A DNA stretch of 64,000 nucleotides from Eledone cirrhosa (lineage: Eukaryota), in NCBI GenBank assembly GCA_964016885.1, contig OZ024742.1, positions 98,952,001-99,016,000 on the forward strand, given 5' to 3'. The translations under genes and the position numbers were made by a program. Below the pieces are notes generated by a model. It made no database searches and was not told where the DNA came from. It saw only the letters and a list, made by a program, of their open reading frames with translations. Position 1 is the first letter of the stretch. Every line of letters begins with the position of its first letter. Shown one piece after another: positions 7,366 through 62,656 of the stretch.

Positions 7366-8189
7366 TCATCATCATCATCATCGCCGTTTTACGTCCGTTC
7401 TTCCACGCTAGCATGGGTTAGACGGGTTGTCCTGTTGTGGGCAGTGTCTGGTCGGCTGACCATGCCTTGCTCATACAGGAACTGATCTGGCTTGATTTCT
7501 ACAGCTGGATGCCCTTCCTAACACCAACCTCATTTACAGTGAGTGCTGGGTGCTTTTTCGTGGCGCCTACACGTCCACTTTACAGTGTGGGCTGGGTGCT
7601 TTTTTGCCGTGGCACCTCCACGACCACCTTGCGGTGGGGGGAGTGGGGGCATATTGTTTATATGCTTCAGCATGTACCCATGGGAGGTCGGGTACCCTGT
7701 ATTACTGCGTGACGCCAGAAGTCACGGTCGTGTGTCATTGTCTTTGAGAGGTGTAGTTGGGTAAGGTCGGCTTTTATCACCTCATCCCAAGTCATCTTGG
7801 GTCTCCCCACTCCGCGGTTTCCATCAACTTCTAGTGCTCTGCACCTTTTTATGCAGCTGTCATCCTTCATACGCATCACATGTCCATACCAGCGTAACCG
7901 CCTCTCCTGCACGCAGCATTTGATTCCTCTTATGCTCAGTCTCTCTCTCAATTCCTTTATGCTTTGTCGTTCACGTATATTACTGTTACACATCCATCGG
8001 AGCATGCAGGCTTCGTTTCTCTCTAATCTACGTAAGTCTTCCACCTTCAGCGCCCAGGTCTCACTACCATGCAACATCGCTGTTCGGATACACGCATCAT
8101 ACAGTCTGCCTTTCATTCCGAGGGAGAAGCCTTTTGCAGCTAGCAGTGGTAGTAGTTCCCTAAACTTCTTCCATCCCGTTCTTACCCTG
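7363..8189 (-). mobile_element. RTE-clade LINE, 5'-truncated (C-terminal ORF, 3'UTR and (GAT)n tail)
   Basis: ORF 7667..8116 KGRLYDACIRTAMLHGSETW...MLRWMC...RRLRWYGHVMRM...GRPKMTW is the typical RTE C-terminus; (CAT)n on + at 7363-7382 is the tail. Confidence 0.85.
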
Positions 8190-8805: not shown

Positions 8806-9031
8806 AGGGCGGTGGATTGGCAGTATCGGTAGAGGGTGGAACGCCATGCTTTTCAGCAAAGAGTTACGGCCCTTTATGATCTGAGTTCAAATCCCGCCGA
8901 GGTTAACTTTGCCTTTCATCCTTACGGGGTTGATAAAATAAAGTACCAGCCATGCACTGGAGTCGATTTAATGAACTCCCCCCCCCCCCCCTCAAAATTG
9001 CTGGCCTTGTGCCTATATGAGAAACCATTAT
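8806..9031 (+). mobile_element. tRNA-derived SINE with Nin-like domain and LINE-derived 3' end
   Basis: A box TGGCAGTATCGG, B box GAGTTCAAATCC, central CCTTTCATCCTTACGGGGTTGATAAAATAAAGTACC, 3' GGCCTTGTGCC...GAAACCATTAT; flanked by direct repeat TTTTAAAGCGTTG (8792-8804 and 9032-9044). Confidence 0.8.
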
Positions 9032-9044
9032 TTTTAAAGCGTTG

Positions 9045-9238
9045 AACAGCATACTTTTCGGCATATAGTTACGGCCCTATAGATTCTGATTTAAGCATCC
9101 CGTCGAGGTTGGCTTTATCGTTCATCGATACCGGGTTGATAAAATAAAGAACCACTAACCTACTGTGGTCGATCTAATAGACGTTCCCCTGTACCAAAAT
9201 TGTTGGCCTTGAGCCGAAATCAGAAACCATTATTCATA
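9045..9238 (+). mobile_element. Older, truncated copy of the same SINE
   Basis: GTTACGGCCCT...GTCGAGGTT...GGGTTGATAAAATAAAGAACC...AAATTGTTGGCCTTGAGCC...GAAACCATTATT. Confidence 0.7.
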
Positions 9239-10919: not shown

Positions 10920-11673
10920 TGAAAGTATAGAAATTATTGTGAGCGTGAAGCCAACAGTAGTTCATAATATATAAGTGACTATAGCGTCAAAATGGAAAAT
11001 AATTAACGTAAGATGTGGGAAAATAATTCAAACTCAATTAAAAAAAATCAAGACATAGATTTATCCATAGAATTTTGTGAAATCCAGGGAAAAATCTATA
11101 GAACCTTAACTCTGAATAAAATAAAGTTTAAATACTCATCCTTCAATTTGGAAAAACTTCAAATGCTCTATATAGTCTTAAAAAGACCATTTCACGAAAC
11201 TTTCAGTGGGGATAGTCACTGTTGGAACCGTTCATCAGTAGAGCTCAACACGCTAACCCTAAACCACTGCTAGAAATATTCCAAAAAGGGAATTTAAAAG
11301 CAGGCTAGTTCAACTCATGCGTAAATATGAAATTATCCGCACATGGAGAGACATGGCTGGTGACGTCAGAATGAGAAGAATGTCTGTTTACAGGAAACAG
11401 CAGTAAAAAAAAAACATTCCCCAAAAAACTCTACAAATGTAAGGAATTCAGCAAAATAGCAATATTATGGCGGTTTGGGGGGGGGGGTTAAAGACCGTGA
11501 TTAGTCACAAATAATTTTAAGCACTCTAGGAAAAAATTCCGAGTATAAATATAAATGAAAGTATAGAAATTATTGTGAGGTTGAGCCAACAGTATTTCAT
11601 AATATATAAGTGACTATAACGTCAAAATGGAAAATAATTAACGTAAGATGTATGAAAATAATTCAAACTCAAT
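10920..11673 (-). mobile_element. Hammerhead-bearing element with ~120 bp terminal direct repeats (retrozyme or PLE-LTR-like)
   Basis: TGAAAGTATAGAAATTATTGTGAG...ATTCAAACTCAATT at ~10920-11039 and ~11556-11674 (period ~637 bp); hammerhead at 11165-11244; TA runs on both sides. Confidence 0.65.
11165..11244 (-). ncRNA. Type I hammerhead ribozyme motif with full stem III (AUA triplet)
   Basis: Reverse complement: GCTCTA-CTGATGA-ACGG..(CAGTG/CACTG hairpin)..TCGT-GAAA-TGGTCTT TTT AAGACTA-TA-TAGAGC; 6-bp stem I and 7-bp stem III. Confidence 0.8.
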
Positions 11674-11691
11674 TCAATATATATATATATA

Positions 11692-12166
11692 TACTGTGCG
11701 TCTGTATACAAATATGTATGTACGTATACATACATACTTACATTTAAGTAAGTGCCGTACTATGAGTGAGAAATGAAATTTCGTTTCATTCTATTCCATT
11801 TATCGTTTTCGCTGTGCCCGGCCGACTGAACTCACTCGATATGCAAATTAGGCTGCTCAGCCGTTAATATGCATAAGGAAAGTATATACTTTTAGACGTT
11901 CAACCAGCTGGCAGGAAGGTATACGATGCTGACGATAGCTAATAAGCTTGAAACTAGTACATCGTTCCTATGTCAGTGTTGAACAAAAAGGTGATGTGGT
12001 TGCCTAAACACTGTACGGCGTAATTCGGGCTGTTTGTTTGTTTACAAACAAACAAACCGAGCTTATAATAAATGTTCGGGAAACCGATACGTGAATATAT
12101 CTATGTGTGCATGTGTGTATATATATACATACTACTGTGCGTCTGTATACATATATGTATGTACGT

Positions 12167-12173
<7 letters not shown>
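11692..12173 (+). mobile_element. Dispersed ~1.1-unit copy of the hammerhead satellite family (inverted relative to 55023-58592)
   Basis: Reverse-complement homology to the satellite unit throughout; TACTGTGCGTCTGTATAC occurs at 11692 and again at 12133 (period 441); octamer at 11841-11848. Confidence 0.85.
11923..11965 (+). ncRNA. Minimal type I hammerhead ribozyme motif
   Basis: ACGATG-CTGACGA-TAGCT AATA AGCTT-GAAA-CTAG-TA-CATCGT; U-U at the base of stem II; palindromic ACTAGT stem III. Confidence 0.75.
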
Positions 12174-12212
<39 letters not shown>

Positions 12213-13279: not shown

Positions 13280-14130
13280 GGCGCTGTCAGAGTGTGAGAC
13301 GTGCTATTCTGAGCACCGATGAATTAAATTATTTAAATTTTATTTCGTTGTGATTTTTGGAGGAAGTTGGGGTGGTTATAACGGTAGCGGATTTAAGTCC
13401 CTACGTCGAGGCCTACCATACCACGTCTGTCGACGGCCCATGCTGCGTGCTGCGAAAGGCCAGTAACTTCAGACGAGATTCGAGATGACTTAGTCGGCTG
13501 CACGAGACGTAAGTCATCCGATTTGGATGGTCTGCCCTACGAGCTAAAATATGCCAGACTCGAAACGCTCTACTACAACTGGCAGCAGAACGGGAGTTTC
13601 CCCAGTTCTGTGAGCCGAGAGTAGAGACGCTGATAAGAAAAGACGAGAACAAGAAGGATACGTTAGATAGATTTCGATAGGATCGACCATGGATACCAGG
13701 AGGCTGTCCTCAAAGGAGCTGGCTTCGGCTCTGTCTTCAGAGGCTGGATCACTGCAATGCACTGGTGAAGGTGCACAATAGAAGGTGAAGGTAGGGAGAT
13801 AAGTGCCCCCTAGTGCATTGCTGAAAGGAGGGGGAATGTGCCGAGAATGGCCCGTGTGACGGCGTACTCAGATCATGCCCCTGTAGGTTTGTGTATTTGA
13901 GAAGGAGAGAGGGGCCTTCCAGGGTGCCCTCGAAGCGTCGGGTGGTTCAGGATTGGTACATGAGTCAACCCTGGGTGCTTATCTCCCCTATTGGGGAATT
14001 TTCATAGTTGTATTTTTCTTGTTTATTGTTATTATTTTTATATTTTTACTCAATTTGTTTGTAAATCCCGACTGTTCCTGTCTATTGTATTATCCCTTAT
14101 ACGTCGGCCCTTCTGGCCAATAAATGAAAC

Positions 14131-14161
<31 letters not shown>
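13280..14161 (+). mobile_element. Heavily internally deleted Tx1/L1-family relic with 3'UTR and (ATT)n tail
   Basis: Patches homologous to ORF2 (CTACAACTGGCAGCAGAACGGGAG, GACGCTGATAAGAAAAGACGAGAACAAG, TTCGATAGGATCGACCAT) and the 3'UTR ending GGCCAATAAATGAAACC(ATT)n. Confidence 0.85.
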
Positions 14162-14367
14162 GGTCTAAGCGGACGTATTTTGCTCGTTCACAGTAAGTCG
14201 CTTTATTTGCCTGTTTAAATTATTTGTTGTTAAATATTTCTTGATGTGTAAGGGATATAAGCCCTTAGACTTTGCCCCGAGAAGGGGAAAGTATAACATT
14301 TGGGCCTTTTGGCTCAAATATTTGAACTTTATTTTACATGTTAAAAAATTTACGAAGAAAAAAAAAC

Positions 14368-16095
14368 ATGGCTGAGCCACGCCCCCAAGCGATATGTCGG
14401 CTGTCGTGCGACAACGACGTAGAAGTTGAGAGGAGCGCTACAGCGAAATTAACACACATTGATAATACAAACACCACCACAAACAAGGTAAACAAAGACA
14501 CCAATGATACCAATAAGAACTCTAATTTTGAAAAAAATGACAGTAACAGCGACAACGAAAATACAGATAACAAAAAAAAACAAAACAAATACAACAACAA
14601 TATCAACACCACTAACATGAAAACAAATAGCAACAACACTAACAGCAACAATACCAACTGCACTGAGAACAACGGTGGCAACAAAGACAACAATGATAAC
14701 AGCGACAGTGCTAACAACAACACCGACAAGAACAACGTCAACAACACCTCCAACGAAAACAAGACCACTTTCGCTGCGGCAGCAGCAAACAAGAGGCCAT
14801 GCTTCAACATGGACCTCTCAAACAAAGATGAAAAGTTGGCCCAGGCATGGAAGCTCTTCAAGCAAGAGCAAACTTGGGCCAACTTAACTGTCCCAGTAGA
14901 AGCTATTGAGGCAGTGGAACGCAAAACGGTGCATTATAGATGCATCTCAGCACAAACCAAAAGGGCAGCTTTAATCCCACAAGAAGATGTCGAAGTCGCG
15001 CTGAGGTGCATCAGAGAAGACACCCAGTACATAGAGAGGGGCAGACTGTACGGCACCATTTCGGTGATGTTCAAGTCAGAAGCCCTCGCTATGAAACACG
15101 CTATGACTCCTTGCACAACCAGCAAGGTCATAATGTACCCCTCCCACATGGGAAAAAGAACGGCCCGTCTCCGCATTCCCAGAATCCCACCAGGACTTGA
15201 CATGTGGTGGCTTCGGGGATGTGTGATTGTGGAGGGGACGAATAGAGTCCCTATAGAAGTGACCAGAACGGCCAGAGAGGACTGGTCCGGGGTTGACCTG
15301 GAGATCCTTCTCCAGATCAGGCCCGAGAATGTGAAGACAATCCCAGACCACATCCGCTTTGAGAATGGGACGGTCATTCACATTATGACCGAAGGCAAAA
15401 GGTCGCAGTGTTTTGTTTGTGGAGAAAAACCCATTTGCGAGCCTTCTGCCCTCAACTGCTGAAAGAGGCAAGGGGTCGAAAGGATCCACTGCTGTCGACG
15501 CCAGGACCACAACCAACACCAGCACCGGCAAAACCACCAACAACAACACCAATAGAAAGACCACCACCAACATTGACCACCCAGGGGGGAAACGAGGAAA
15601 GCTGTCAAATTCCCCCTCCCCCCCAAGAAAAATACACACAACAATAAAACCATAAACATACATACAGACACACTTACAGACACAGACCCCTCATCTATCA
15701 GTAGTGAAAATGAGGGAAATCCAAAATCCCCCAAAATACAAAAAAGGAAACACAAAAAGAAAAAAAAACTCAACAAAGCACAAAAGCACCTACAATAAAA
15801 AGACGCAGACACCACCCACGCATACATCTCTCCAATAACACCACCATCAACACCACCATCACCATCACCAGAATCCCCCAAACGCAAACAAACGAAACAG
15901 ACGCAAGAACAAATATACACACAAACATCTGAAACCACAGACACCGCACTCACAAAAAACACAGATACAACCGAAACAACACAACCAAAACCATCACCAC
16001 CACAGCCACGCAAACATATAAAATCACACCAACAAAACATACAAAACTTCGTGCTCGAACAACCCGACCTTCACAAGAGCTCGGAAGGTAAGTAA
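14368..16095 (+). pseudogene. LINE ORF1 pseudogene (Asn-rich N-terminus, frameshift in the zinc knuckle)
   Basis: MAEPRPQ...EKLAQAWK...IPRIPPGLDMWWL matches intact ORF1; frame breaks at CFVCGEK. Confidence 0.85.
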
Positions 16096-16126
16096 ACCTT
16101 CCTCTCTCTCTGTTTAACATGCCAAC

Positions 16127-19100
16127 ATGGCGGTATTAAGAGTAGGATGTTTAAATGTTCGAGGCCTGGGATCGTCCTGGAAGCAGGGTCACCTGCTCAA
16201 CGACCTCAGGTCTATAGAAATGGATGTAATTGCAGTCAGCGAGACCAGGATTTCCGACACGCGCGCACTAGCCCCCATTTTCGAAGACTATCAGATCTTT
16301 GCATCTGTTAGCCGGCCGGGAATGGGAGTGGAAGTGCTGTTTAGGAAAGGCCTGGATCTCGAGGTAAGGTCGATCTTCCGGGACCCGGACGGGAAGTTGG
16401 TGGTCCTGGACATGAACAATAATGAAGGTGGTGCCTTTAGACTGGTGGCCGTCTATGCTCCTACTGGGGCAGGACGGCCGGACTTCTTTAGACGCCTGGA
16501 AGCCTTTCTGGGTACGTCTCGCCCTTTACTGTTAGCGGGGGACTGGAACGGCATCTTAGACGCACGCTGGGACTGTGTAGGAGTATCCGATAGGAGCGGG
16601 GGGTGCAAAAGCCTCAAGAACCTGATCAGCCAGTTCGAACTGTCTGACAGGTACCGACTAGATTACCCTAATGCGCCAGTGTGGACCTGGGCTAACCGCA
16701 TAGGGTCATCTAGATCGTATATAGACAGGATCTTCATTAGGAAAATAGACAGAAATAGTGTAAGCTGTTCACGTTTTGAAACGGTCGCCTATTCAGATCA
16801 CAAGTGTGTGATCTGTATGGTCGACCTAGATAAGACGCGTAGCTAAGGACCTGGTTACTGGAAGCTAATCATGTCATTTCCGACACGTAAGTCTTACAGG
16901 GACCAGGTTAACAATTTAATTAAGAAAAAGTTGACAGGGGGAATCGTCAACAATAGATGGGTGGGGGGGGGGCTCTCAAAAGAGCGATTAGAGTAATGTC
17001 GATAGAGTTTAGCAAAGAAGTAGCTTTAGAGAAAAATAGAAAGGAGGGGGTGTTGGTAGATAAGTTAGACGAGGCTATTGGCAGTGGCATTGCAACTGAT
17101 GTGCTAGCGGCGAGAATGGCATTAGACCATTTCTTCAATGCTAAATACGAAGGTTGCATTGTCACAGCTAAGACGCGTGCTGTGAGAAACGAGGGAACCA
17201 AAGCTGTTCGATGGGCGCGCGTGGCAGAGGCGCAGCGTGGTAATAAAACCACGATTCGATCATTTAAGCGACCGAGACAGGCACGAGGTAAGCAATTCCA
17301 AGAGGATGTGTGAGGCCTTTCGCCAACATTTTGCTCGCTTGGTCGGGGGAAGTGGCGGGTCAGAGATGGTGGCGGACTTCAGTCCCTACCTCGATGGCTT
17401 GCCGCAACTCTCGACGGCTGACGCTAGGCGCTGCGAAAGGCCAATTACTTCAGCCGAGATTCAGGATGCCCTTGTCGGCTGCATGAGGCGCAAGTCACCC
17501 GGTTTGGATGTTTTGCCCTACGAACTTTACGTAAATATGCCAGACTTGTTCTCCAATCTCCTCGAAGCCCTCTACTGCAACTGGCAGCAAAACGGGAGTA
17601 TTCCCAGTTCTGTGAGCCGGGGCGTAGTCACGCTGATAAGGAAAGACGAGAACAAGAGGGAGACATTAGACAATTTCAGGCCCATAACCCTGCTCAACAC
17701 AGAGTTTAAGATTTTGGCCAGGGTGTTAGCGAAGAGGTTGGCGCTTGTCGTCGGGGATTTGGTTGGGGAGGCGCAAACTTGCGCAATCCCAACCAGTTCC
17801 ATACACGACAACCTCCACCTAATGCGATACATCATAGAGAGGGTAGGGTGTAAACCTGGCTTCGGTGGGGCTCTGATCAATTTAGATCAATCGAAAGCAT
17901 TCGATAGGGTCGACCATCGGTACCTGGAGGCTGTCCTCAAGGCGGCTGGCTTCGGCCCCGTCTTCAGAAGCTGGATCGCTGCAATGCACAGCGGCATCTG
18001 CTCGATGGTCACAATTAATGGCCACCTCTCGGAACCGTTTCAGGTCTCCCCATCGGTCCGCCAAGGGTGCCCTCTCTCCTCCCTTCTGTACGTATTGACT
18101 CTCGAGCCTTTACTGCGGAAGCTGGAGCTGTTGCAGGGCGTCCCGCTCGAACCGGGACGCGGAAAGGCTGTGTCGGACGACATCACCGTGATGGTGTCGG
18201 ACACCTCAGAAATTGAGGTCGTCGGCAATTTATTGGAGGAATATGAAAGATTGACGGGAGCAAAACTTAACCCGGAAAAGTCAGTGGGCTTGCAACTCGG
18301 CACCTGGAGAGGCAAGTCCATGCCGTCCAACAGCGTCGTTAGTCGCTGGACGGACGGACCGGTAAAGTTGCTAGGGGTTTGGTTCGGGCCAGACCTCCAG
18401 GTAGATAAGAATTGGGACGAGGTGACGGGCAGGGTAGTCAGTCTCACCCTGAAATGGGCTGGGATGAAGCTATTACTGAAAGGTCGGGCGGAGGTGGCGA
18501 ACGCGTACATCGCGTCCGTCATCTACTACCGTCTGAACGTCGTCCCTTGCCTCCGTACGCGCCTCGCCATCTTGGAGCGGCTCCTCTTCAAATTCTTCTG
18601 GAGGGGTCAGGTTCCGCTGATTAGGCGGTCCATCTGCTGCCAGCACCCTCTACGTGGAGGGCTGGGCATGCCGTGGCTAATGATGCGCAGGCATGCGCTG
18701 AGGCTGCGGCATCTCCAGATATTCTGCCTAAAGGGTGAACAGGTGTGATTGCCGTTTGTCAGACGGGCCTTTCCGCAGCTCGTTTCTTTGACTGAGTTGC
18801 AGTCTTGCGTCAAGAAGAGACCGAGACTGGGTGACTGCCATCTGGAATGTTGCCAGGCACTTACTGCCTTCTACCAGGCGGGCAATGAGGTCAGTGGAAC
18901 TTCCACTCTCGAGTTCTATAGAGGATTAGTGGTGGGCAAGTGCGACGACGCACTCGGAGAGGCTCTGGGAGTCAACGAAGTCGAACTAACCAGTCTGTAC
19001 CGGGGGACTTTTGAGCCGGGGACGATGGATAATTTCCAAACATCCCTCGCTTGGTAGTGCTACCGGGGGGGGAGGGCACTGCCGGTTCGAGATAAACTCT

Positions 19101-19546
19101 ACAGGCACGGAAGTGCTGTCAGACGGACCTACCCGAGATGCTCGCAGAACGACGAAACCGTTATGCACGCACTCGTCCAGTGTCTGTGCATTACTGACTT
19201 GTGGAGTTATGTTGAACAGCTGTTGTCGCGTGTAGAACGGATCCGGCTATCGGCCGAGTCCATAGTGAAGATCGACACGCCGCCTTCTTTTGGCCAGGAA
19301 GGGTAGGCAATCTTCCTCTGTCTGGTGGCAGTAACGAAAGAGGTTGTATGGTGGACGAGGTTGAAAGGACTGAAGACGGACACTTTTCTCTTCGGCCAAT
19401 CGCTCATCAACTTTTTCAAGTACCACTTGGAAAAAAAGGTGAGGGTGGAGAGAGAAGTGATGCCCCCCAATACAGTTGCTGAAAGGTGGGTGAATGTGGC
19501 GAGAATGGCCCGTGTGAGTGGGCCTACTCTGGTCATGCGGCTGTAG
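16127..19546 (+). pseudogene. LINE ORF2 pseudogene (APE endonuclease, RT, CCHC)
   Basis: Fragments 16127..16846, 16957..17313, 17237..18748, 18749..19057 and 19325..19546 are colinear with ORF2 24726..28145. Confidence 0.9.
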
Positions 19547-19848
19547 GTAGGTAAATTTGAAGAGGAGAGGGGTGCCCTTCCAGGGTGTTCTCGAAGCGTC
19601 GGGTCGTTCAGGATTGGTGGGGTACCTGAGCGAACCCTAAGTGGTCATCCCCCCCCTATTGAGGAATTTTTTCTTGTTGTAATTTTCTTGTTACTTTATT
19701 GTTACTTAGTTATTGTTACTTTGTTATTGTTATTCATATTGTTTACTCGATTTTTATGTAAAACCCCACTGTCCCAGTCTTTTGTATTGTCCCCTATATG
19801 TCGGCCCTTGTGGCCAATAAATGAAATCATTATTATTATTATTATTAA

Positions 19849-20070
19849 AGGGCGGTGGATTGGCAGTATAGGTAGAGAGTCGGACGCCATGCTTTTCAGC
19901 ATAGTTACGTCCCTTTACGATTTGAGTTCAAATCCCGCCGAGGTTTAATTTGCCTTTCATCCTTACGGGGTCGATAAAATATAGTACCAGTAATGTACTG
20001 CATAATTGCTGGCCTTGTGCCAAATGTAGAAACAATTATTATTATTATTATTATTGTTGTTATTATTATT
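19849..20070 (+). mobile_element. tRNA-derived Nin-like SINE inserted at the LINE (ATT)n tail
   Basis: GGGCGGTGGATTGGCAG...GAGTTCAAATCCCGCCGAGG...TTTCATCCTTACGGGGTCGATAAAAT...GGCCTTGTGCCAAATGTAGAAACA(ATT)n. Confidence 0.8.
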
Positions 20071-21116: not shown

Positions 21117-21303
21117 TAATTGTTTCTACTTTAGGCATAAGGCCAGCAATTACCCAGTGCATTACTGGTACTTTATTTTATCGACCCCGTAAGGATGAAA
21201 GGCAAAGTAAACCTCGGCGGGATTTGAACTCAGACCGTAAAGGGACGTAACTATGCTGGAAAGCATGGCCTCCGTCTCTCTACCGATACTGCCAATCCAC
21301 CGT
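21117..21303 (-). mobile_element. tRNA-derived Nin-like SINE
   Basis: Reverse complement of the 19849 family (TTTTATCGACCCCGTAAGGATGAAAGGCAAAG...GGATTTGAACTCAG...CTGCCAATCCACCG). Confidence 0.8.
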
Positions 21304-21525: not shown

Positions 21526-21675
21526 TAATTGTTTCTACATTTAGCACAAGACCAGCTTTGTTTTATCGACCCCGTAAGGATGAAAGGCAAAGTTAACCTC
21601 GGCTGGATTTGAACTCAGTTTGTAAAGGAAAGTAACTCTTTGCTGGAAAGCAAGGCGTCCGACCCTCTGCCAATC
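21526..21675 (-). mobile_element. tRNA-derived Nin-like SINE, internally deleted
   Basis: TTTTATCGACCCCGTAAGGATGAAAGGCAAAGTTAACCTCGGCTGGATTTGAACTCAG. Confidence 0.75.
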
Positions 21676-22439: not shown

Positions 22440-22573
22440 CATTGCGTTTCATCCATACGGTGTTGGTAAAATAAAGCTCCAATAATGACGAGGTGTGGAT
22501 TTAATCGACGCTCCACTCCCCCAAAATTGCTGACATTGTGCCTAAATCAGTAACCATTATTATTATCATTATT
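22440..22573 (+). mobile_element. 3' part of an old Nin-like SINE whose tail is the LINE insertion site
   Basis: TTTCATCCATACGGTGTTGGTAAAATAAAG...GATTTAATCGAC...AAAATTGCTGACATTGTGCCTAAA...AACCATTATTATTATCATTATT. Confidence 0.7.
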
Positions 22574-22785
22574 GACGAAAGTGGATGTACGTTTTTTGAA
22601 GCTCCGTGAGTAAGCAATTTTTTGAGGATTAATTGTAGAGAATTGTTTATTTTTTGTACCGCTGAAGCATTATAAGACATTAATTTGTATCCTGTGAAGG
22701 AATAACTCATAATATTTGGGCCTTTTGGCCCAAATATTTGAACTTTATTTTGAAAAAAAATAATAATTTTTTTTCTCAAAAAAAC

Positions 22786-24696
22786 ATGGCGGAGCCACGC
22801 CCCCTAGAGGCGGGTCTGCTGTCGTGCAACGGTGACTTGAGCGTTGAGAGGAGAGGTGAGGCGAGGAGTGCCACCAGCACGAACGTGAGCAGCGACAGTG
22901 CCAGCACCAACGGGCCGAGCGGCGCGGAAGGTGGTAACAGCGACAACACCAACACCAACAAGCCGAACAGCGCAGAAGGTGGTAATAGCGAGAGCACCAA
23001 CAAAACGAACAGCACAGAGAGTAATAGTAGCGACAGCAGCAGCACCAACAAGGCCAACAGCACAGAAGGTAACCACGACACAGGGGAGAACAACAACAGC
23101 AATAGCAGCAGCAACACCAACAAGAACAACAACAGTGACAACACCAACAAGAACACTTTCGCTGCTGTGGCAGCGGCTAAAAGGAGACCATGCTACAGCA
23201 TCGACTTAACCAACAGAGAGGAAAAGTTGGCCCAGGCCTGGAAAATCATAAATCAAGAGCAGACCTGGGCAAACTTAACTGTCCCGGCAGAAGCCATTGA
23301 GGCAGTGGAAAAAAGAACGGTGCATTTCAGATGCATCTCAGTAGAGACAAAGAGGGCAGCGATAATCGCCCAAGCTGACATAGAAGCCGCACTGAAATAC
23401 ATCAGAGAGGACACAGACTTCATAGAGAGGGGCAGGCAATACGGCACCGTTTCGGTGCTGTTCAAGTCTGAAGCCCTCGCTGTGAAGCATTCAATGACCC
23501 CTTGCAAAACCAGCAAGGTCATAATGTACCCCTCCCACATGGGAAAACGAATAGCACGTGTGCGCATTCCCAGGATTCCACCAGGACTTGATATGTGGTG
23601 GCTCCTGGGTTGCGTAATCGTGGAAGGAACGGATACAGTCCCGGTAGAGGCAACGAGAACTGCCAGGGACGACTGGTCCGGGGTTGATCTGGAGATACTG
23701 CTCCAAATCAGACCCGAAAACGTAAAAACAATCCCGGACCACATCCGCCTCCAAAACGGGAGGGTGTTGCATATAATGACTGAGGGCAAAAGGCCGCATT
23801 GTTTCCTTTGTGGGGAAACGACACACTTGCGAGCCTTCTGCCCTCAACTGCCGAAAAGCGCAAGGGGTCGAAAGATTCCACTGCTGGCGACGCCGGGACA
23901 AGGACCACCAGCAACACCGTCAACAATGGAACCACCAAAATTGCACACCCAGGGGGGAAACGAGGAAAGCTCTCCCATTCCCCCTCCCCCCCAAAATACA
24001 CACACGAACAAGAACATAAACACTCACTCAGACACAAACACGCTCACAGCCACAGACCCCTCATCCTCCAGCAGTGAAGATGAGGGAAAACCAAAGTCCC
24101 CCAAAATACAAAAAACAAAACACAAAAAAAAAAGAAATCCACAAAGCACAAACACCCCCACAAAAGAAAATACACACACCACCCACACAAACATTTTCCC
24201 CACAGCATCACCAACACAACCACCAAAATCCCCCAAACGCAAACAAGCTAGACAGACACAAGAACAAATAGACACACAAACATCAGAAACTACAGACACC
24301 CCACCCACAACAAACGCAGACACAATAGAAACAACACTAACAAAGCTATCACCACCACAATCACACGAACAAATAAAACCCGAGCAACAAAACATTAAAA
24401 ACTTCGTGCTTGCCAGAAGGGCCAACAAGGAATTGATGGCCCATGTAGCACGAAGCACAAACATCGAAAAAGACGGGGAAACATTTGAAGCGAGCACATT
24501 TCGCGTACCAGATAATTTGCTTCTGATGCGAATGTCGCTCGCTTCATACAAAGAAATTCGAAAGAGCTTTCCTCGGGATGTGGGAACCCCGAACGTAAAA
24601 CCCACGTCAAGACTATTAAAGGGGTTCCCAAAAGAAACCCCACAAACCATGGAGGTCGAACCACCCGACCTTCACAAGACCCCGGAAGGTAAGTAA
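22786..24696 (+). CDS. LINE ORF1 protein (gag-like nucleic-acid chaperone with a CX2CX4HX4C zinc knuckle)
   Basis: ATG at 22786 (MAEPRP, conserved in other copies); CFLCGETTHLRAFC knuckle; low-complexity N/S- and T/P-rich regions. Confidence 0.88.
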   Translation: MAEPRPLEAGLLSCNGDLSVERRGEARSATSTNVSSDSASTNGPSGAEGGNSDNTNTNKPNSAEGGNSESTNKTNSTESNSSDSSSTNKANSTEGNHDTGENNNSNSSSNTNKNNNSDNTNKNTFAAVAAAKRRPCYSIDLTNREEKLAQAWKIINQEQTWANLTVPAEAIEAVEKRTVHFRCISVETKRAAIIAQADIEAALKYIREDTDFIERGRQYGTVSVLFKSEALAVKHSMTPCKTSKVIMYPSHMGKRIARVRIPRIPPGLDMWWLLGCVIVEGTDTVPVEATRTARDDWSGVDLEILLQIRPENVKTIPDHIRLQNGRVLHIMTEGKRPHCFLCGETTHLRAFCPQLPKSARGRKIPLLATPGQGPPATPSTMEPPKLHTQGGNEESSPIPPPPQNTHTNKNINTHSDTNTLTATDPSSSSSEDEGKPKSPKIQKTKHKKKRNPQSTNTPTKENTHTTHTNIFPTASPTQPPKSPKRKQARQTQEQIDTQTSETTDTPPTTNADTIETTLTKLSPPQSHEQIKPEQQNIKNFVLARRANKELMAHVARSTNIEKDGETFEASTFRVPDNLLLMRMSLASYKEIRKSFPRDVGTPNVKPTSRLLKGFPKETPQTMEVEPPDLHKTPEGK

Positions 24697-24725
24697 ACCT
24701 TTCCTCTCCCATTCATCCTGCCAGC

Positions 24726-27700: not shown

Positions 27701-28145
27701 CAGGCACGGAAGTGCTGTCAGACGAACCTGCCCGAGATGCGCGCAGAGCGACGAAACCGTTCTGCACGCACTCGTCCAGTGTCCGTGCATTGCTGACTTG
27801 TGGGGCTATGTCGAACAGCTATTGTCGCGTGTAGAACGGATCCGGCTATCGTCCGAGTCCATAGTGAAGATTGACCCGCCGCCTTCTTTTGGTCAGGAAG
27901 GGCAGGCAATTTTCCTCTGCCTGGTGGCAGTAGCGAAAGAGGTTGCATGGTGGACCAGGTTGAAAGGACTGAAGACAGACACTTTTCTCTTCGGCCAATC
28001 CCTCATCAACTTCTTCAAGTTTCACTTGGAAAGGAAGGTGAGGGTGGAGAGAGAAGTGCTGCCCCCCAGTACATTTACTGAAAGGTGGGTGAATGTGGCG
28101 AGAATGGCCCGCGTGAGTGGGCCTACTCTGATCATGCGCCTGTAG
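24726..28145 (+). CDS. LINE ORF2: APE endonuclease, reverse transcriptase and C-terminal zinc finger (Tx1/L1 clade)
   Basis: 1139 aa; EN motifs SLNVRGL, ISETR, GDWN, YIDRIF, YSDH; YWKLN; RT motifs [37 protein letters not shown]; CPRC..ETVLHALVQC. Confidence 0.96.
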   Translation: MAIRVGSLNVRGLGSPWKQGHLLNDLRSLGMDVIAISETRISDTRALAPIFDDYQIFASVSRPGMGGGVAVLFRKCLDLEVRSIFRDPDGKLVVLDVSNSEGGAFRLVAVYAPTGAGRPDFFRRLENFLLTSRPLLLIGDWNGILEARWDCVGVSDRSGGCKSLKYLISQFQLSDRYRLDFPNAPVWTWTNRIGSSRSYIDRIFIRKRDRNSVGCPHFKTVAYSDHKLVICMVDLDKTRRLGPSYWKLNMSFPARKAYRDRVNNLVKQKLTGGVVNNRWWGALKREIRATSIGFSKEVAIEKNRKEEGLIAKLDEAICSGIATDVLAARMALDHFFNAKHEGCIVRAKARALRNEGTKAARWARFAETQRGNKTTIRSLTDRDGHELSDSKQMCEAFRQHFARLFGRMGESETAADFSPYLDGLPRLSTADAERCEEPITSAEIQDALVGCSSRKSPGLDGLPYELYVNMPDLFSDLLEALYCNWQQNGSIPSSVSRGVVTLIRKDENKRDTLDNFRPITLLNTEFKILAKVLAKRLALVVKDLVGEAQTCAIPTRSIHDNLHLMRYIIERVGCKPGFGGALINLDQSKAFDRVDHRYLEAVLEAAGFGPVFRSWIAAMYSGIRSVVKVNGHLSEPFQISRSVRQGCPLSSLLYVLTLEPLLRKLELLQGIPLEPGRRKAASAYADDITVMVSDTSEIEVIRTHLEEYERLTGAKLNPEKSVGLQLGTWRGKSMPSNSVVGRWTDGPVKLLGVWFGPDLQVDKNWDEVTSRIANLTQKWAERKLSLKGRAEVANAYIASVIYYRLTVVPCPRPRLANLERLLFKFLWRGRVPLVRRSICCQHPLRGGLGMPWLMMRRHALRLRHLQIFCLNGEQVWSPFVRRAFPQLISLTELQSWVKKRPRLGDWHLECCQALTALCKVGNAVSGTSTQDFYRGLVEGKCDDVLGEVLGVNEVELTSMFRRTFEPGTMDNFQKSLAWQCYRGALPVRDKLYRHGSAVRRTCPRCAQSDETVLHALVQCPCIADLWGYVEQLLSRVERIRLSSESIVKIDPPPSFGQEGQAIFLCLVAVAKEVAWWTRLKGLKTDTFLFGQSLINFFKFHLERKVRVEREVLPPSTFTERWVNVARMARVSGPTLIMRL

Positions 28146-28628
28146 GCTGGTGAATTCGAGAAGGAGAGGGGTGCCCTTCCCGGGTGCCCTAGGAGCGTCG
28201 GGTGGCTCAGGACTGGTGGGGTGCTTGAGTCAACCCTGGGTGGTGATCCCTCTTATTGGGGAACTTTCATTGTTGTATTTTATTGTTATTTTGTTTTTTT
28301 TGTTATTTATACTTACTCGATCTCTATGTAAACCCCCACTGTCCCTGTCTATTGTGTTGTCCCCTATATGTCGGCCCTTGTGGCCAATAAATGAAATCAT
28401 TATTATTATCATTATTGACGAAAGTGGATGTACGTTTTTTGAAGCTCCGTGAGTAAGCAATTTTTTGAGGATTAATTGTAGAGAATTGTTTATTTTTTGT
28501 ACCGCTGAAGCATTATAAGACATTAATTTGTATCCTGTGAAGGAATAACTCATAATATTTGGGCCTTTTGGCCCAAATATTTGAACTTTATTTTGAAAAA
28601 AAATAATAATTTTTTTTCTCAAAAAAAC

Positions 28629-30540: not shown

Positions 30541-30569
30541 ACCTTTCCTCTCCCATTCATCCTGCCAGC

Positions 30570-35895: not shown

Positions 35896-35896
35896 T

Positions 35897-44150: not shown

Positions 44151-44154
<4 letters not shown>

Positions 44155-44818: not shown

Positions 44819-44849
<31 letters not shown>

Positions 44850-48610: not shown

Positions 48611-54000
<5,390 letters not shown>

Positions 54001-54332: not shown

Positions 54333-54337
<5 letters not shown>

Positions 54338-54984
54338 AATTAAGTCAAAAATGTACATCTACATATGCATACTGAAATACTAGTGTGTATATGAATACAC
54401 ACACGTATACATATGTAGGTGTACCAAGTCTTTCACTGGTCGCTTTACAGTGAGCGGCCCAGCTATTCTGTATGTAAACACACAGACAAACCGGTTTTTA
54501 GAGTCAAACTGGTTTTCGGGGGGAACACCTTCCCTCCATTCTCCAGAAAGCCAGACAAGGAATATTGGACTAGTTTCGTTGTTGTTACAACTCATCAGCA
54601 ATATTTACCTATCTACCGGCCTTTCTGGAGAATTGTAAAAGCACATATCGTTATATGCTTTTTCTATGAAAATTAGTAGTGGGCAGACTAATTTGCATAG
54701 AGTGTGAGTACGCACCGGTTCAGCGGAGACGATAAAAACAAATAACGAAACGAAATTAAATTTCGTTTCGTTTGTAACTCACTTTTGTATGACTGACGCT
54801 TAAACAATTAAGTCAAAAATGTACATCTACATATGCATACTGAAATACTAGTGTGTATATGAATACACACACGTATACATATGTAGGTGTACCAAGTCTT
54901 TCACTGGTCGCTTTACAGTGAGCGGCCCAGCTATTCTGTATGTAAACACACAGACAAACCGGTTTTTAGAGTCATACTGGTTTT
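54333..54984 (-). mobile_element. ~1.4-unit (468 bp period) hammerhead- and octamer-bearing element; diverged relative of the adjacent satellite
   Basis: TAAACAATTAAGTCAAAAATG... at 54333 and 54801; GCAGACTAATTTGCAT matches GCAGCCTAATTTGCAT of the satellite; hammerhead at 54561-54605. Confidence 0.8.
54561..54605 (-). ncRNA. Canonical minimal type I hammerhead ribozyme (GUC triplet)
   Basis: Reverse complement: AATATTG-CTGATGA-GTTG TAACAA CAAC-GAAA-CTAG-TC-CAATATT; 7-bp stem I and perfect core. Confidence 0.88.
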
Positions 54985-55139
54985 ACATATATATATATAT
55001 ATATACATATATATGTATATATAAGTTGAAAAAAATGAAAACGAAATTTCATTTCTCACTCTTAGTATGGCACTTACTTAAATGTAAGTATGTATGTATA
55101 CGTACATACATATATGTATACAGACGTACAGTAGCATGC

Positions 55140-55173
<34 letters not shown>

Positions 55174-55331
55174 GCATACAGGTACACATACATATATGCA
55201 CGCATCAGTTTAGCCGACGTTTATTATAACGCAGCTTTGTTCGCTTGTTTGTCAACAAATCGAACAGCCTGAATTTATGCCATACGGTGTTAAGGCAACC
55301 ACGTCACCTTTTTGTTCAACACTGACACAGG

Positions 55332-55376
55332 AACGATGTACTAGTTTCAAGCTTGTTAGCTATCATCAGCACCGTT
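55332..55376 (-). ncRNA. Minimal type I hammerhead, satellite unit 1 (further copies at 55812-55856, 56286-56330, 56747-56791, 57257-57301, 57747-57791, 58208-58252)
   Basis: Reverse complement: AACGGTG-CTGATGA-TAGCT AACA AGCTT-GAAA-CTAG-TA-CATCGTT. Confidence 0.78.
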
Positions 55377-55449
55377 TACCCATCTGCCAGATAGTTGAAC
55401 GTTCGAAAGTATATACTTTCCTTATGAAAATTAACGGCTGAGCAGCCTA

Positions 55450-55457
55450 ATTTGCAT
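55450..55457 (-). promoter_or_regulatory. Octamer motif ATGCAAAT (candidate POU/Oct site), upstream of the hammerhead in every full unit
   Basis: ATTTGCAT on +; conserved at 54691-54698 and 11841-11848 despite flank divergence. Confidence 0.45.
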
Positions 55458-55610
55458 ATTGAGTGAGTTAAATCGGTCAGGCATACCGAAAACGACAAGT
55501 TGAAAAAAATGAAAACGAAATTTCATTTCTCACTCTTAGTATGGCACTTACTTAAATGTAAGTATGTATGTATACGTACATACATATATGTATACAGACG
55601 TACAGTAGCA

Positions 55611-55653
<43 letters not shown>

Positions 55654-56093
55654 GCATACAGATACACATACATATATGCACGCATCAGTTTAGCCGACGT
55701 TTATTATAACGCAGCTTTGTTCGCTTGTTTGTCAACAAATCGAACAGCCTGAATTTATGCCATACGGTGTTAAGGCAACCACGTCACCTTTTTGTTCAAC
55801 ACTGACACAGGAACGATGTACTAGTTTCAAGCTTGTTAGCTATCATCAGCACCGTTTACCCATCTGCCAGATAGTTGAACGTTCGAAAGTATATACTTTC
55901 CTTATGAAAATTAACGGCTGAGCAGCCTAATTTGCATATTGAGTGAGTTAAATCGGTCAGGCATACCGAAAACGACAAGTTGAAAAAAATGAAAACGAAA
56001 TTTCATTTCTCACTCTTAGTATGGCACTTACTTAAATGTAAGTATGTATGTATACGTACATACATATATGTATACAGACGTACAGTAGCATGC

Positions 56094-56125
<32 letters not shown>

Positions 56126-57025
56126 GCATACAGGTACACATACATATATATGCACGCATCAGTTTAGCCGACGTTTATTATAACGCAGCTTTGTTCGCTT
56201 GTTTGTCAACAAATCGAACAGCCTGAATTTATGCCATACGGTGTTAAGGCAACCACGTCACCTTTTTGTTCAACACTGACAAAGGAACGATGTACTAGTT
56301 TCAAGCTTGTTAGCCATCATCAGCACCGTTTACCCATCTGCCAGATAGTTGAACGTTCGAAAGTATATACTTTCCTTATGAAAATTAACGGCTGAGCAGC
56401 CTAATTTGCATATTGAGTGAGTTAAATCGGTCAGGCATACCGAAAACGACAAGTTGAAAAAATGAAAACGAAATTTCATTTCTCACTCTTAGTATGGCAC
56501 TTACTTAAATGTAAGTATGTTTGTATACTTACATACATATATGTATACAGACGTACAGTAGCATGCATATATATATATATACACATATGCATACAGGTAC
56601 ACATACATATATGCACGCATCAGTTTAGCCGACGTTTATTATAACGCAGCTTTGTTCGCTTGTTTGTCAACAAATCGAACAGCCTGAATTTATGCCATAC
56701 GGTGTTAAGGCAACCACGTCACCTTTTTGTTCAACACTGACAGAGGAACGATGTACTAGTTTCAAGCTTGTTAGCTATCATCAGCACCGTTTACCCATCT
56801 GCCAGATAGTTGAACGTTCGAAAGTATATACTTTCCTTATGAAAATTAACGGCTAAGCAGCCTAATTTGCATATTGAGTGAGTTAAATCGGTCAGGCATA
56901 CCGAAAACGACAAGTTGAAAAAAATGAAAACGAAATTTCATTTCTCACTCTTAGTATGGCACTTACTTAAATGTAAGTATGTATGTATACGTACATACAT
57001 ATATGTATACAGACGTACAGTAGCA

Positions 57026-57098
<73 letters not shown>

Positions 57099-57535
57099 GC
57101 ATACAGGTACACATACATATATGCACGCATCAGTTTAGCCGACGTTTATTATAACGCAGCTTTGTTCGCTTGTTTGTCAACAAATCGAACAGCCTGAATT
57201 TATGCCATACGGTGTTAAGGCAACCACGTCACCTTTTTGTTCAACACTGACACAGGAACGATGTACTAGTTTCAAGCTTGTTAGCTATCATCAGCACCGT
57301 TTACCCATCTGCCAGATAGTTGAACGTTCGAAAGTATATACTTTCCTTATGAAAATTAACGGCTGAGCAGCCTAATTTGCATATTGAGTGAGTTAAATCG
57401 GTCAGGCATACCGAAAACGACAAGTTGAAAAAAATGAAAACGAAATTTCATTTCTCACTCTTAGTATGGCACTTACTTAAATGTAAGTATGTATGTATAC
57501 GTACATACATATATGTATACAGACGTACAGTAGCA

Positions 57536-57588
<53 letters not shown>

Positions 57589-58489
57589 GCATACAGGTAC
57601 ACATACATATATGCACGCATCAGTTTAGCCGACGTTTATTATAACGCAGCTTTGTTCGCTTGTTTGTCAACAAATCGAACAGCCTGAATTTATGTCATAC
57701 GGTGTTAAGGCAACCACGTCACCTTTTTGTTCAACACTGACAAAGGAACGATGTACTAGTTTCAAGCTTGTTAGCTATCATCAGCACCGTTTACCCATCT
57801 GCCAGATAGTTGAACGTTCGAAAGTATATACTTTCCTTATGAAAATTAACGGCTGAGCAGCCTAATTTGCATATTGAGTGAGTTAAATCGGTCAGGCATA
57901 CCGAAAACGACAAGTTGAAAAAATGAAAACGAAATTTCATTTCTCACTCTTAGTATGGCACTTACTTAAATGTAAGTATGTTTGTATACTTACATACATA
58001 TATGTATACAGACGTACAGTAGCATGCATATATATATATATACACATATGCATACAGGTACACATACATATATGCACGCATCAGTTTAGCCGACGTTTAT
58101 TATAACGCAGCTTTGTTCGCTTGTTTGTCAACAAATCGAACAGCCTGAATGTATGCCATACGGTGTTAAGGCAACCACGTCACCTTTTTGTTCAACACTG
58201 ACAGAGGAACGATGTACTAGTTTCAAGCTTGTTAGCTATCATCAGCACCGTTTACCCATCTGCCAGATAGTTGAACGTTCGAAAGTATATACTTTCCTTA
58301 TGAAAATTAACGGCTAAGCAGCCTAATTTGCATATTGAGTGAGTTAAATCGGTCAGGCATACCGAAAACGACAAGTTGAAAAAAATGAAAACGAAATTTC
58401 ATTTCTCACTCTTAGTATGGCACTTACTTAAATGTAAGTATGTATGTATACGTACATACATATATGTATACAGACGTACAGTAGCATGC

Positions 58490-58520
<31 letters not shown>

Positions 58521-58613
58521 CACATATGCATACAGGTACACATACATATATGCACGCATCAGTTTAGCCGACGTTTATTATAACGCAGCTTTGTATATGT
58601 ATATATATATATA

Positions 58614-58810: not shown

Positions 58811-58815
<5 letters not shown>

Positions 58816-61800
58816 ATACTTGGGGAGGGTCATATTTGTCAGAATTAATAACAGAACCCACTCACTGTTTGGTTGATTTTCGCTTTTGTGTCTTTTATAT
58901 CGGTTAATTTAATTTATTCGGTCCTCAATATTACCATTGACTGACCAACGGTCAAAAATACAGATACAATATAGACACAAACACATATATATAGTCTATC
59001 AAAGTTCTTTCGTTGCACATCTGCAACATCGTCAGTGTTGCTATTATGTTTCCTCCCGTTGCATTGTATGTTTACGCCACCTTTATTTAGTCTGTTTGTT
59101 TGTTTATTTTTTTGTCTTTTCTGCAACAACAACAATAATAACGGTAGTAGTAATATAAACAATAACTCTGAGTATAGTAATAACAGCTATAATAGTAATA
59201 GCCATAACAATAACAATAGCAGGAGAGTGAGAAATAGTAATAATGGTAATACTATTAACGTTAGACAGAACAACAACAACAACCTCAATAATAATAATAA
59301 TAATAGAAACATTAACTACAGACAGAGCAATAGCGACCACAGTAGTAATAGCGGTAACAATACGAATAACAACAACAACCACAGTGGTAATAATTGAAAT
59401 AATATATGTAGCAACATTAATGATAGACACACAAAACAAGAAACATAATAAAAGTAACAACCACAATGGTAGAAATAACAGTAACAACAACAATAACGGT
59501 GGAGAAAACAACAACAATACACCTAACAATCACAGCAACAATACATCTAGCAATCATATTAACAATACATCTAACAATCACAGCAACAATACATCTAGCA
59601 ATCATAACAATAATAATAATGCTAATGATAGGAACAACAACAACCACCATAATAACAATAATAGCAACACACCCAACTATGACGGTAGATATATTGACAA
59701 CCCCTTAGAGAAACTATTCTTCAACCCAGCTGACAAAACATATAAGATGGGTAATATCTATCCTACGAGGTTACCCTTTAATAAAAGAGTTTGCATACCT
59801 CAACAAATAGATGACGAGACAGAGGCACAGTTCACCATAGCTAGAAATAAGATTAGACAAATAGTAGACCGGTATACTAAGAGACAGAGCAGACCGAGGT
59901 CCAACAACTTGGGAGGAAACCTGTAGAAGGCTTGGTTAGCCTCAAGCAGCACACACGGGATGGTGAGGTAGTGTGTTACCCGCGGATAAGTCTGGTAGGA
60001 TGTCAATAGACAACATGCCGAACTACATCAAGGCAATGCAATCCCACATCACCAACACGAGCGAAATTGCATAGCAAATACATGATGGGAGAGAGAAAAT
60101 ACTCAACGCTCAGATGATGATGTGGACCGACATGCTAAAGCCAAGCAGACGCACTGCCAACAACTTCCAGGCATCCAACAATGGCATACCACTCCTGTAT
60201 AGGCTCCGCAAAGACCACAAGAAAGTCGACGACTCGACAACAGGATCACCAACAAGACCTGTATGCGGAGCAATATAGCTAACAACTACAGGATCTCCTA
60301 CTTCCTCTCAATGGTTATACGCCCCATAATCAAGATGACCCCAGATGTATGTGACAGTACAGAGGAACTCCTCGGCAGAATTAGTGAGTGCAACAAAAAC
60401 AGGAACCTATCCAACTCCATAATAGGCAGTATGGATGTGCTATCACTGTACCCATCCATTAACATTGATTTTGCTGTGGAAAAATGAGTGGACATGATCA
60501 TTGAGAGTGAGGTGGAGTTCTGCGACGTCGACACAGACGAACTGGGCCTCCTACATAGACTTACCTACAACACTGACTACCTAGACAGCCATGACCTTAG
60601 ACGTGTCTGCCCCAGTAGACACATAAGAGGTAGACCCCCACCATAACCTCAATGGCAAAAAAGACTCCCATGGGAAGGTGGATTGGGTGGACCAAAGCTA
60701 TACGGAGCCCCCAAAACAATGATCAGGTAAGAAAAATGGTCGCACATGCAATAGGGACTAGTATCAAAACTACCCTAAAGGGCCACATATTCAAGTTCAA
60801 CTAGAAGATCTACACCCAAAATGAGGGAACAGCTATTGGCGTCAGCATAGCTGGTGACGTTGCCAACCTTTTTATGGCATGGTGGGAAAGGAGACTCAAA
60901 GATCTCCTTGATGAGAGCTCCATAGACCTCATCATGTACTCTCGTTACGTAGACGACATCAATATAATAATAAGGACATCCCCACAAGAGAGCACGAAAA
61001 AGTTTGATTTAGAACGTAGCACAATGGAAAGCATCCAGCAGATAGGTAAATCCATACACCAGAGTATAACTGTAACTATCGACGCCCATCCTAACACCCT
61101 AACAATAGACTACCTGTATTAGACACGGAACTCTGGATTAACACTATAGACGAGAGAGCCCAAATTCTCCACTCACACTATGCTAAACCCATGGCCTCCA
61201 AATATCTGATACTCAAAAACTCAGCATGTACAATAGTGCTAAGTTTAATATTCTGATCGCAGACATGGTACGAGTGATGAAGAACGTGTCCCGCATGTGC
61301 GACCCAACAGAAATGGAAAGACACATCCAACACTTCATCAACCGCATGCAGTTCTATGTCTACAACCAAAGAGACAGAATCAGAGTATACGAAGGAGCCA
61401 CGGAGAAGTATAAGACCTTCATAGAACTGGACATGAAAGGAATGTTCCCATTATACAGGAGCAAATCATGGAATAGCTTAGATAGGACTAGACATAAGAT
61501 AGGGAAAGCCACCCCATGGTACGACAACCAGAGGTAGCAGAGTGTCATGTTTGTGGACGCTACCCCTGGAGGGAAATTAGCTAACCAGTGTAGAAAGGCC
61601 CAGAGAAAGACCCACTTAAAGATTAAGGTGGTAGAAAAGCCAGGAACCACCATAAAGTCCCTGATCAGCAAAACCTACCCTTTTAAGAAAACCCACTGTA
61701 CTAATAGGAAATGTATTATATGTAGAGTAAACCCCCGGATAAACTGTAAAACTAGAAACGTAGTCTATAGCATAAGATGTAAAGAGGGTACTTGCAGAAA

Positions 61801-62599
61801 CATGACAACAACATACATAGGCGAGACAGCTCGTAGCATAGGTGAAAGGATTGACCAACACTGGGGGAACTAAAAGGACGAAAAAACGGTTCAGTACTAT
61901 ACGAACATGCCAGACAACAATGCAACTGTAACATATACAATATAGAAGTTAGAATAATATCTAAACATAGAAATGACCCAGCAGATAGGCAAATCAGAGA
62001 GGCCAGCGAGATAGAACTTAGGAGGCCAAGGCTAAACAGAAAAAATGAATGGAATAGCAACCACACCCAAACAAACAACACTGATCTAAGCGAAGTATAA
62101 ATAGATAGATAGATAAATAATTATAAATAGATAAATACATACGCAAGCGCAATAACAGCAAACACATATAAACACACACTAGTAAATTAGATAGAATACA
62201 TTAACCAATACACAGTCACCCAAACAAGAACATCCATCAAACGAAACACTATACGAAAACGCATGCGCAGAGAAGACGAAAAAATAAACAAATAAATAAA
62301 TAAATAAACTGACTAAATAAAGATGGCGTAAACATACAGTGAAACGGGAGGAAACATAATAGCAACACTGACGATGTTGCAGATGTGCAACGAAAGAACT
62401 TTGAAAGACTATATATATGTGTTTGTATTTTGTATCTGTATTTTTGACTGTTGGTCAGTCAATGGCAACATTGAGGAACGAATAAATTAAATTAACCGAT
62501 ATAAAAGACACATAAGCGAAAACGAACCAAACAGTGAGTGAGTTCTGTTACTAATTCTGGCAATATTCCACAAATATGACCTTCCCCAAGTATAACAAT
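58811..62599 (+). mobile_element. Penelope-like element (Neptune-type), decayed, with inverted terminal repeat arrangement
   Basis: 58811-59113 is the reverse complement of ~62280-62599; RT and GIY-YIG remnants between them; hammerhead-like CTGACGA...GAAA in both repeats. Confidence 0.88.
59700..62098 (+). pseudogene. Penelope-like RT plus GIY-YIG endonuclease pseudogene
   Basis: GSMDVLSLYPSI, G.AIG..IAGDVANLFM, YSRYVDD, FVDATPGGKLA, Cys linker HCTNRKCIIC, NVVYSIRC...TYIGETARS..ER; many stops and frameshifts; boundaries approximate. Confidence 0.88.
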
Positions 62600-62656
62600 A
62601 TTTGTTTCGACACACGATTTCATATCAAAAAGCTCGCAAAACTAATTCATCGCCGT

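Follow-up and report, generated by a model that had tools for sequence, protein, structure and literature searches.

How a repeat copy slightly longer than one unit came to lie far away from the tandem array to which it is related is the question raised by a locus of Eledone cirrhosa. The window, that is the whole stretch of DNA analysed here, comprises 64,000 nucleotides (GenBank assembly GCA_964016885.1, contig OZ024742.1, positions 98,952,001 to 99,016,000 of the forward strand). The dispersed copy, named copy A, is very probably a copy of a non-LTR retrozyme, and a probability of roughly three in four is given to its formation by RNA-templated insertion of more than one unit. The key feature of the locus, which a previous reading made from the sequence alone (the sequence-only reading) had overlooked, is a hammerhead ribozyme motif in each unit. 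Published sources are cited below by PMC or bioRxiv number.

Copy A and the other insertions of the window

The elements discussed in this section are the following.

11692..12173, + strand: copy A, dispersed copy, very probably of a retrozyme (ribozyme sense on the + strand), 1.09 units of a 441-bp monomer
11692..11732, + strand: 5' copy of the 41-nt terminal overlap, 40/41 nt identical to 12133-12173
12133..12173, + strand: 3' copy of the 41-nt terminal overlap
11677..11691, no strand: TA run, left flank, between element D and copy A
12174..12208, no strand: TA run, right flank of copy A
55023..58594, - strand: tandem array of 7.47 units (7 full ones, each of 461-510 bp, and a further 222 bp)
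54335..54984, - strand: sister element, 1.39 units of 468 bp; hammerhead core at 54598, predicted cleavage after 54568
10921..11674, - strand: element D, of an unrelated family, period 636, 119-bp overlap (94%), 1.19 units

Copy A measures 482 bp, that is one 441-bp unit plus an overlap of 41 bp. The terminal redundancy of about 40 bp with period 441 noticed by the sequence-only reading was confirmed, with a single mismatch between the two ends. This overlap is not a target-site duplication, because every unit of the array has it internally and in the same context; it is partly of low complexity and adjoins the internal TA run of the unit itself. Other statements of that reading were also borne out: copy A is inverted and diverged with respect to the array (80.7-83.6% identity by blastn to the seven units, on the opposite strand, and 61 substitutions in 441 aligned columns), it lies about 43 kb away (42.85 kb from copy A to the array start), it begins at another phase of the unit and it sits between TA runs, pure TA beginning at both of its ends. 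For the phase, copy A, array and sister were aligned (490 columns, numbered from the cleavage site); in this alignment copy A spans column 201 round to 241, the array column 106 to 314 and the sister column 52 to 253.

The sequence-only reading had also named a sister element of about 1.4 units. Its length was confirmed (650/468 = 1.39, with an overlap of 182-184 nt and one mismatch); as a correction, the sister is a distinct subfamily with 58% identity and 181 substitutions in 435 columns when compared with copy A. Element D, absent from the earlier description, is the fourth such insertion; it is flanked by TA on both sides and abuts copy A within one TA tract. The window holds four insertions of 1.09, 1.19, 1.39 and 7.47 units belonging to two unrelated families, all of them (4/4) non-integer and greater than one unit and three of the four between 1 and 1.4 units. 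A custom covariance model, which is blind to element D and to the cores of the Penelope-like element described below, picked out 9 family members; it returned no other match below E 0.09, and thus no further decayed copies.

Within the array, units 4 and 7 have five variants and a 14-nt TA run in common and units 3 and 6 share one variant, a three-unit periodicity that points to a local three-unit duplication or to a multimeric template. Since units 4 and 7 share these variants, a single pass round one monomer circle cannot produce the array. Mobile and satellite-like behaviour coexist in this family, the array also showing signs of local duplication. The internal TA run was observed to vary from 14 to 62 nt between the units of the array.

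The longest ATG-initiated open reading frame of copy A encodes 34 aa. A methionine tRNA-type primer binding site (Met-PBS; up to 2 mismatches) and a polypurine tract (PPT; purine run of at least 11 nt) were absent from both strands of copy A, the array unit and the sister. No Pol III A box occurs on either strand, and a lone B-box-like 9-mer was found on the antisense strand only, in copy A, the array and element D. The GC content of the units is 0.37-0.38, under the retrozyme limit of 45-50%.

The window consists of animal DNA rich in repeats, and other repeats were recorded in it. A LINE is present as two tandem copies, 99% identical and with a period of about 5.84 kb (22552-34259); it has an intact ORF2 of 1150 aa (endonuclease-RT-zf-RVT), preceded by another ORF; older LINE copies, at 89% and about 70-80%, occur at 16041-19648, 13381-15505 and 2-490. 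A near-identical direct repeat of ~1 kb (44152-45174 and 49087-50113) surrounds a LINE fragment of 2.4 kb that encodes RT (46153-48609, on the - strand, with a frame of 790 aa free of stops), the pieces being separated by TA tracts of 0.5-3.9 kb, and represents a recent duplication or an assembly artefact. Direct and inverted duplications occupy 63036-64000, including a 384-bp near-palindrome that reaches the end of the window. Dispersed repeats of ~150-220 bp, found in both orientations with 77-92% identity (8806-9234, 19849-20034, 21121-21302, 21556-21674 and 35896-36111), form a SINE- or MITE-like family, and two inverted dispersed repeat pieces, 75-78% identical (7385-8014 and 36552-37562), contain open frames with no Pfam match.

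Hammerhead motif, RNA constraint and a conserved octamer

The ribozyme motif and the octamer of copy A are located as follows.

11917..11969, + strand: type I hammerhead motif, core starting at 11929, predicted cleavage after 11959
11841..11848, + strand: octamer motif ATGCAAAT, identical between copy A, the array and the sister; candidate promoter element

A structure-aware scan detected 10 hammerhead motifs in the window, located in copy A, in each full unit of the array (7/7, one per unit), in the sister and in element D, as against an average of 0.02 motifs and a maximum of 1 in 100 shuffled windows. When copy A itself was shuffled, a motif appeared in 0/5000 sequences at the strict setting and in 2/5000 at the loose one. 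The motif of copy A has a 4-bp helix II set on a U-U pair, a palindromic helix III of 6 nt and an extended helix I with a bulge; that of element D is hammerhead-like with long helices II and III (core at 11238, predicted cleavage after 11171). Core-like strings at 21085, 34964 and 40623 were discarded, their helices being missing on inspection.

In the four aligned copies pairing holds for 93.8% of the cells, and in 6 of 16 pairs both partners change, a covariation that comes from four sequences and mostly from the sister; none of 500 shuffles reached the observed level, and controls in which the alignment was slid gave 36-48%. In Rfam the sister matched Hammerhead_HH9 with 41 bits (E 1.1e-8), under the gathering score of 52, and one array unit gave a weak HH9-type match (18.5 bits, E 0.19). 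At the gathering level there were no Rfam matches in the window, and no Rfam hammerhead was obtained for copy A or element D even at E up to 10. Some microRNA-like Rfam matches near copy A are of low complexity and were judged to be due to chance. The hammerhead assignment rests on motif and covariation, because isolated ribozymes of 61-98 nt fold no more stably than shuffled sequences (z about -0.7 to -1.1). The double hammerhead has a predicted energy of -27.0 kcal/mol compared with -10.2 for two monomers. Newt and axolotl hammerhead motifs cleave as dimers (PMC7229834, PMC4209133), and in a recent survey only one of nine predicted dimers is reported to have been cleaved in vitro (bioRxiv 10.64898/2026.07.22.740005).

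The predicted circular folds of the whole units are 66-69% paired, with z values of -5.3 for copy A, -7.9 for the array, -12.9 for the sister and -2.8 for element D (30 shuffles each). Substitutions between subfamilies break fewer of the predicted pairs than random placement would in all five comparisons (P 0.02 to <0.0002). Changes on both sides of a pair exceeded the null in only two of the five whole-unit comparisons, and no excess was seen in either comparison of copy A with the array (P 0.35 and 0.47). Judged from these modelled folds, the whole unit is constrained as an RNA structure. As the pairs are kept between subfamilies, copy A is best read as young and as belonging to a subfamily that evolves on its own, not as a decayed piece of the array.

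The octamer sits 88-100 nt upstream of the ribozyme core, and 9/10 occurrences of the motif in the window fall in retrozyme units of three lineages. It is unchanged at an overall identity of 58%, while its predicted pairing partner varies, and it is absent from element D. The octamers at 11841, 54691 and 55450-58326 are followed by a conserved AAAGYATATA block. Octamers are used by snRNA-type promoters, and the invariant motif hints, from sequence, at an internal promoter element. For newt satellite 2 the use of an snRNA-type Pol II promoter is cited (PMC2220036, a secondary citation); no proximal sequence element was identified in the units, and a literature search joining the octamer with satellite 2 and the hammerhead returned nothing relevant. 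Animal retrozymes are said apparently to lack promoters (PMC7761336), a statement that the invariant octamer challenges.

Insertion ends, candidate helper and origin of copy A

The starts and ends of the four insertions were mapped onto the unit, a check proposed by the sequence-only reading for all genomic copies, and proved to be neither fixed nor placed at the cleavage site (0/8). In the three related copies, counted downstream from the cleavage site on the 490-column alignment, the 5' ends fall at columns 52, 106 and 201 and the 3' ends at 241, 253 and 314. The 3' ends of the four insertions were observed to cluster 214-315 nt downstream of the cleavage site (n=4 ends). Seven of the eight ends are located within 6 nt of a (TA)5+ run compared with a background of 3.0%, and an imperfect TA tract holds the eighth. 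The ends do not count as independent cases: one TA tract is common to element D and copy A, and another to the sister, the array and the Penelope-like element. The junctions are sharp, with 1-3 nt in common with the TA flank at four 3' and two 5' junctions. Past the 3' junctions of copy A (12173) and element D (10921) the unit sequence itself is TA-repeat-like (9/11 nt in element D), as if priming had occurred by imperfect pairing; this continuation was not seen in the sister and the array.

As a control, 44 TA-bounded segments of at least 150 bp were checked for redundancy at both ends. Copy A and seven pieces of the array could not be scored in this control, being split by the internal TA run; element D and the sister showed two-sided redundancy and none of the other 34 segments did. 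No target-site duplication was discernible at copy A, the flanks being TA runs; in non-LTR retrozymes this duplication, when present, is longer than 4 bp. Elements other than retrozymes, for example the RT fragment at 46153-48609, are TA-bounded too, so any insert may be caught by TA tracts.

A candidate source of reverse transcriptase adjoins the array.

58812..62656, + strand: broken Penelope-like element of the Neptune/Nematis type, directly after the array, with TA runs on both sides

This element contains DKG-type, RT and C-terminal GIY-YIG motifs with a CX4CxxC linker, inverted terminal repeats of ~305 bp with a 3' extension of ~60 bp, and hammerhead-like cores at 59035 (-) and 62368 (+); in the terminal-repeat core helix II is present and no convincing helix I was found. 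Its identity rests on the motifs, on tblastn, by which a homologous protein of Octopus vulgaris (56-73% identical) aligns over seven frame-shifted pieces, and on the Atlas, where that homolog groups with RT plus GIY-YIG clusters (score 0.94). Pfam did not find GIY-YIG in the pieces, and a PDB search gave nothing useful. Penelope-like elements with a CX2-5CxxC linker favour (TA)n targets; the linker marks the Neptune and Nematis clades and was proposed as the mediator of this targeting (PMC8557442). The element has no sequence in common with the retrozyme units (best blastn E 0.17; one element, in the window). The link is circumstantial, because of this lack of shared sequence and because other retroelements are TA-bounded as well, and the chances that this type of element acts as helper of the retrozymes are about even.

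The proposal of the sequence-only reading, namely a mobile family reverse-transcribed from a circular or multimeric RNA, fits the covarying hammerhead, the RNA-constrained unit and the unfixed ends, and greater-than-unit cDNAs copied from circular RNA were already predicted for animal retrozymes (PMC7761336). The pattern in the DNA agrees with circular and with linear multimeric templates alike. In the mechanism favoured here, a tandem master copy would be transcribed and its RNA would cleave itself as a double hammerhead into monomers, which a host ligase may circularise. The circular (or multimeric) RNA would then be copied by a reverse transcriptase borrowed from another element, probably a Penelope-like one: where a (TA)n tract is nicked or broken, 1-3 nt shared with the RNA would prime the cDNA, which could start anywhere on the template, and synthesis would cross the ligated cleavage site and stop 41 nt past one full turn. 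Copy A, with one ribozyme only, would be a descendant within its own subfamily that gives rise to no further copies, and the array a potential master which may also have grown by local duplication. The array qualifies as active under the criterion of the bioRxiv survey (10.64898/2026.07.22.740005), and copy A, with its single ribozyme, counts there as a monomer derivative. A more specific picture is tentative and rather doubtful: a retrozyme lineage with an octamer-based snRNA-type promoter, aimed at (TA)n by the endonuclease of a Neptune/Nematis-type Penelope-like element, whose insertions would result from randomly primed, greater-than-unit rolling reverse transcription of circular RNA.

The strongest of the alternatives, improbable in itself, is that copy A arose when a longer array collapsed through the loss of whole units by unequal exchange, in the manner of a solo LTR. 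Unit number does change locally, as the three-unit periodicity of the array indicates, and by logic the loss of whole units keeps the non-integer ends, so the 1.09 units need not be the length that was inserted. However, a collapse leaves the permuted, TA-bounded ends unexplained, three of the four insertions hold 1 to 1.4 units and no decayed unit remnants lie beside copy A.

Spread at the DNA level, through extrachromosomal circles or ectopic repair into fragile TA tracts and with the ribozyme as a passenger, would yield an identical permuted, non-integer pattern; the TA boundaries of other elements and the unit's own TA run adjoining the 5' end of copy A are in line with it. It is nonetheless unlikely, and less probable than a collapse, since RNA pairs are kept between subfamilies both in the ribozyme and in the whole unit, no donor flank was carried along, and the unrelated element D has a similar anatomy and a hammerhead-like motif, in contrast with the 34 other TA-bounded segments.

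The units could also be truncated pseudo-LTR pieces of an autonomous Penelope-like element and not an independent non-autonomous family. Insertions of Penelope-like elements form partial tandems, contain hammerheads and often have an extension of 30-40 bp (PMC8557442), to which the 41-nt overlap of copy A comes close, and retrozymes were reported to derive from pseudo-LTRs (bioRxiv 10.64898/2026.07.22.740005). This origin is very unlikely, given that the unit joins back onto itself seven times and has no coding sequence in between, that the overlaps range from 41 to 222 nt, that the motif has a canonical helix I of 6-7 bp and a helix II of 4-5 bp instead of the minimal Penelope form (PMC4209133), and that there is no homology to the Penelope-like element of the window.

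TA is a common target of DNA transposons and the unit is rich in hairpins, but a MITE or Helitron-like DNA transposon containing tandem repeats, like a reading of the 41 bp as a target-site duplication, can practically be dismissed: each copy has ends of its own, the 41 nt lie within the array units, and the end-to-end inverted matches (among the longest 25 of 59 and 58 pairs) consist only of TA runs and of the part of the overlap that is complementary to itself, with no other terminal inverted repeats.

Comparison with known systems

RNA-templated insertion of a non-LTR retrozyme, the preferred reading of copy A, has to be placed against what was described previously. The retrozyme class and the prediction of greater-than-unit products are already published (PMC7229834, PMC7761336), and in the text consulted the integration step and the helper were left as hypotheses. 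No junction mapping was found in that text; the supplement of PMC7229834 may already contain similar junctions. On octopus or cephalopod retrozymes the search returned only 235 hammerhead loci in the giant squid (PMC6962438), and no direct study of retrozyme insertion by microsatellite or microhomology was found, most subscription papers lying outside the search. Four permuted non-integer insertions, their TA targets and an adjoining Penelope-like element make the integration step testable genome-wide; if the reading is true, thousands of such junctions would test this hypothetical step and name the helper.

Penelope-like elements of the Neptune/Nematis type resemble the insertions described here in their hammerheads, which lie in the terminal repeats, in their partial tandems, their bias towards microsatellites or (TA)n and a target-site duplication that is often indiscernible (PMC8557442, PMC4209133). 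Unlike these elements, copy A encodes no protein, and its sequence is not homologous to the pseudo-LTR found at 58812-62656. Newt satellite 2 and the schistosome SM-alpha, set beside the present family by description, are likewise tandem hammerhead repeats acting as dimers; unlike SM-alpha, the units lack both Pol III boxes, A and B, in the sense orientation.

The closest likeness is to the non-LTR retrozymes of the mussel Mytilus galloprovincialis (350-390 bp) and of the axolotl (Rtz331/Rtz353), with which the family shares a type I hammerhead per unit, tandem and solo copies, GC below 45%, the lack of ORF, PBS and PPT, a highly paired predicted circle and the presence of Penelope-like elements alongside (PMC7229834). 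In the same source, the axolotl motif HHR_Amex1 resembles copy A in its weak palindromic helix III, and HHR_Amex2 in the U-U base of helix II. The unit of 441-510 bp is above the retrozyme range of 170-400 nt given there and inside the 51-972 bp range of the later survey (bioRxiv 10.64898/2026.07.22.740005). In contrast to those retrozymes, the Eledone cirrhosa family combines a variable TA run of its own, insertion into TA tracts, no visible target-site duplication and an invariant octamer.
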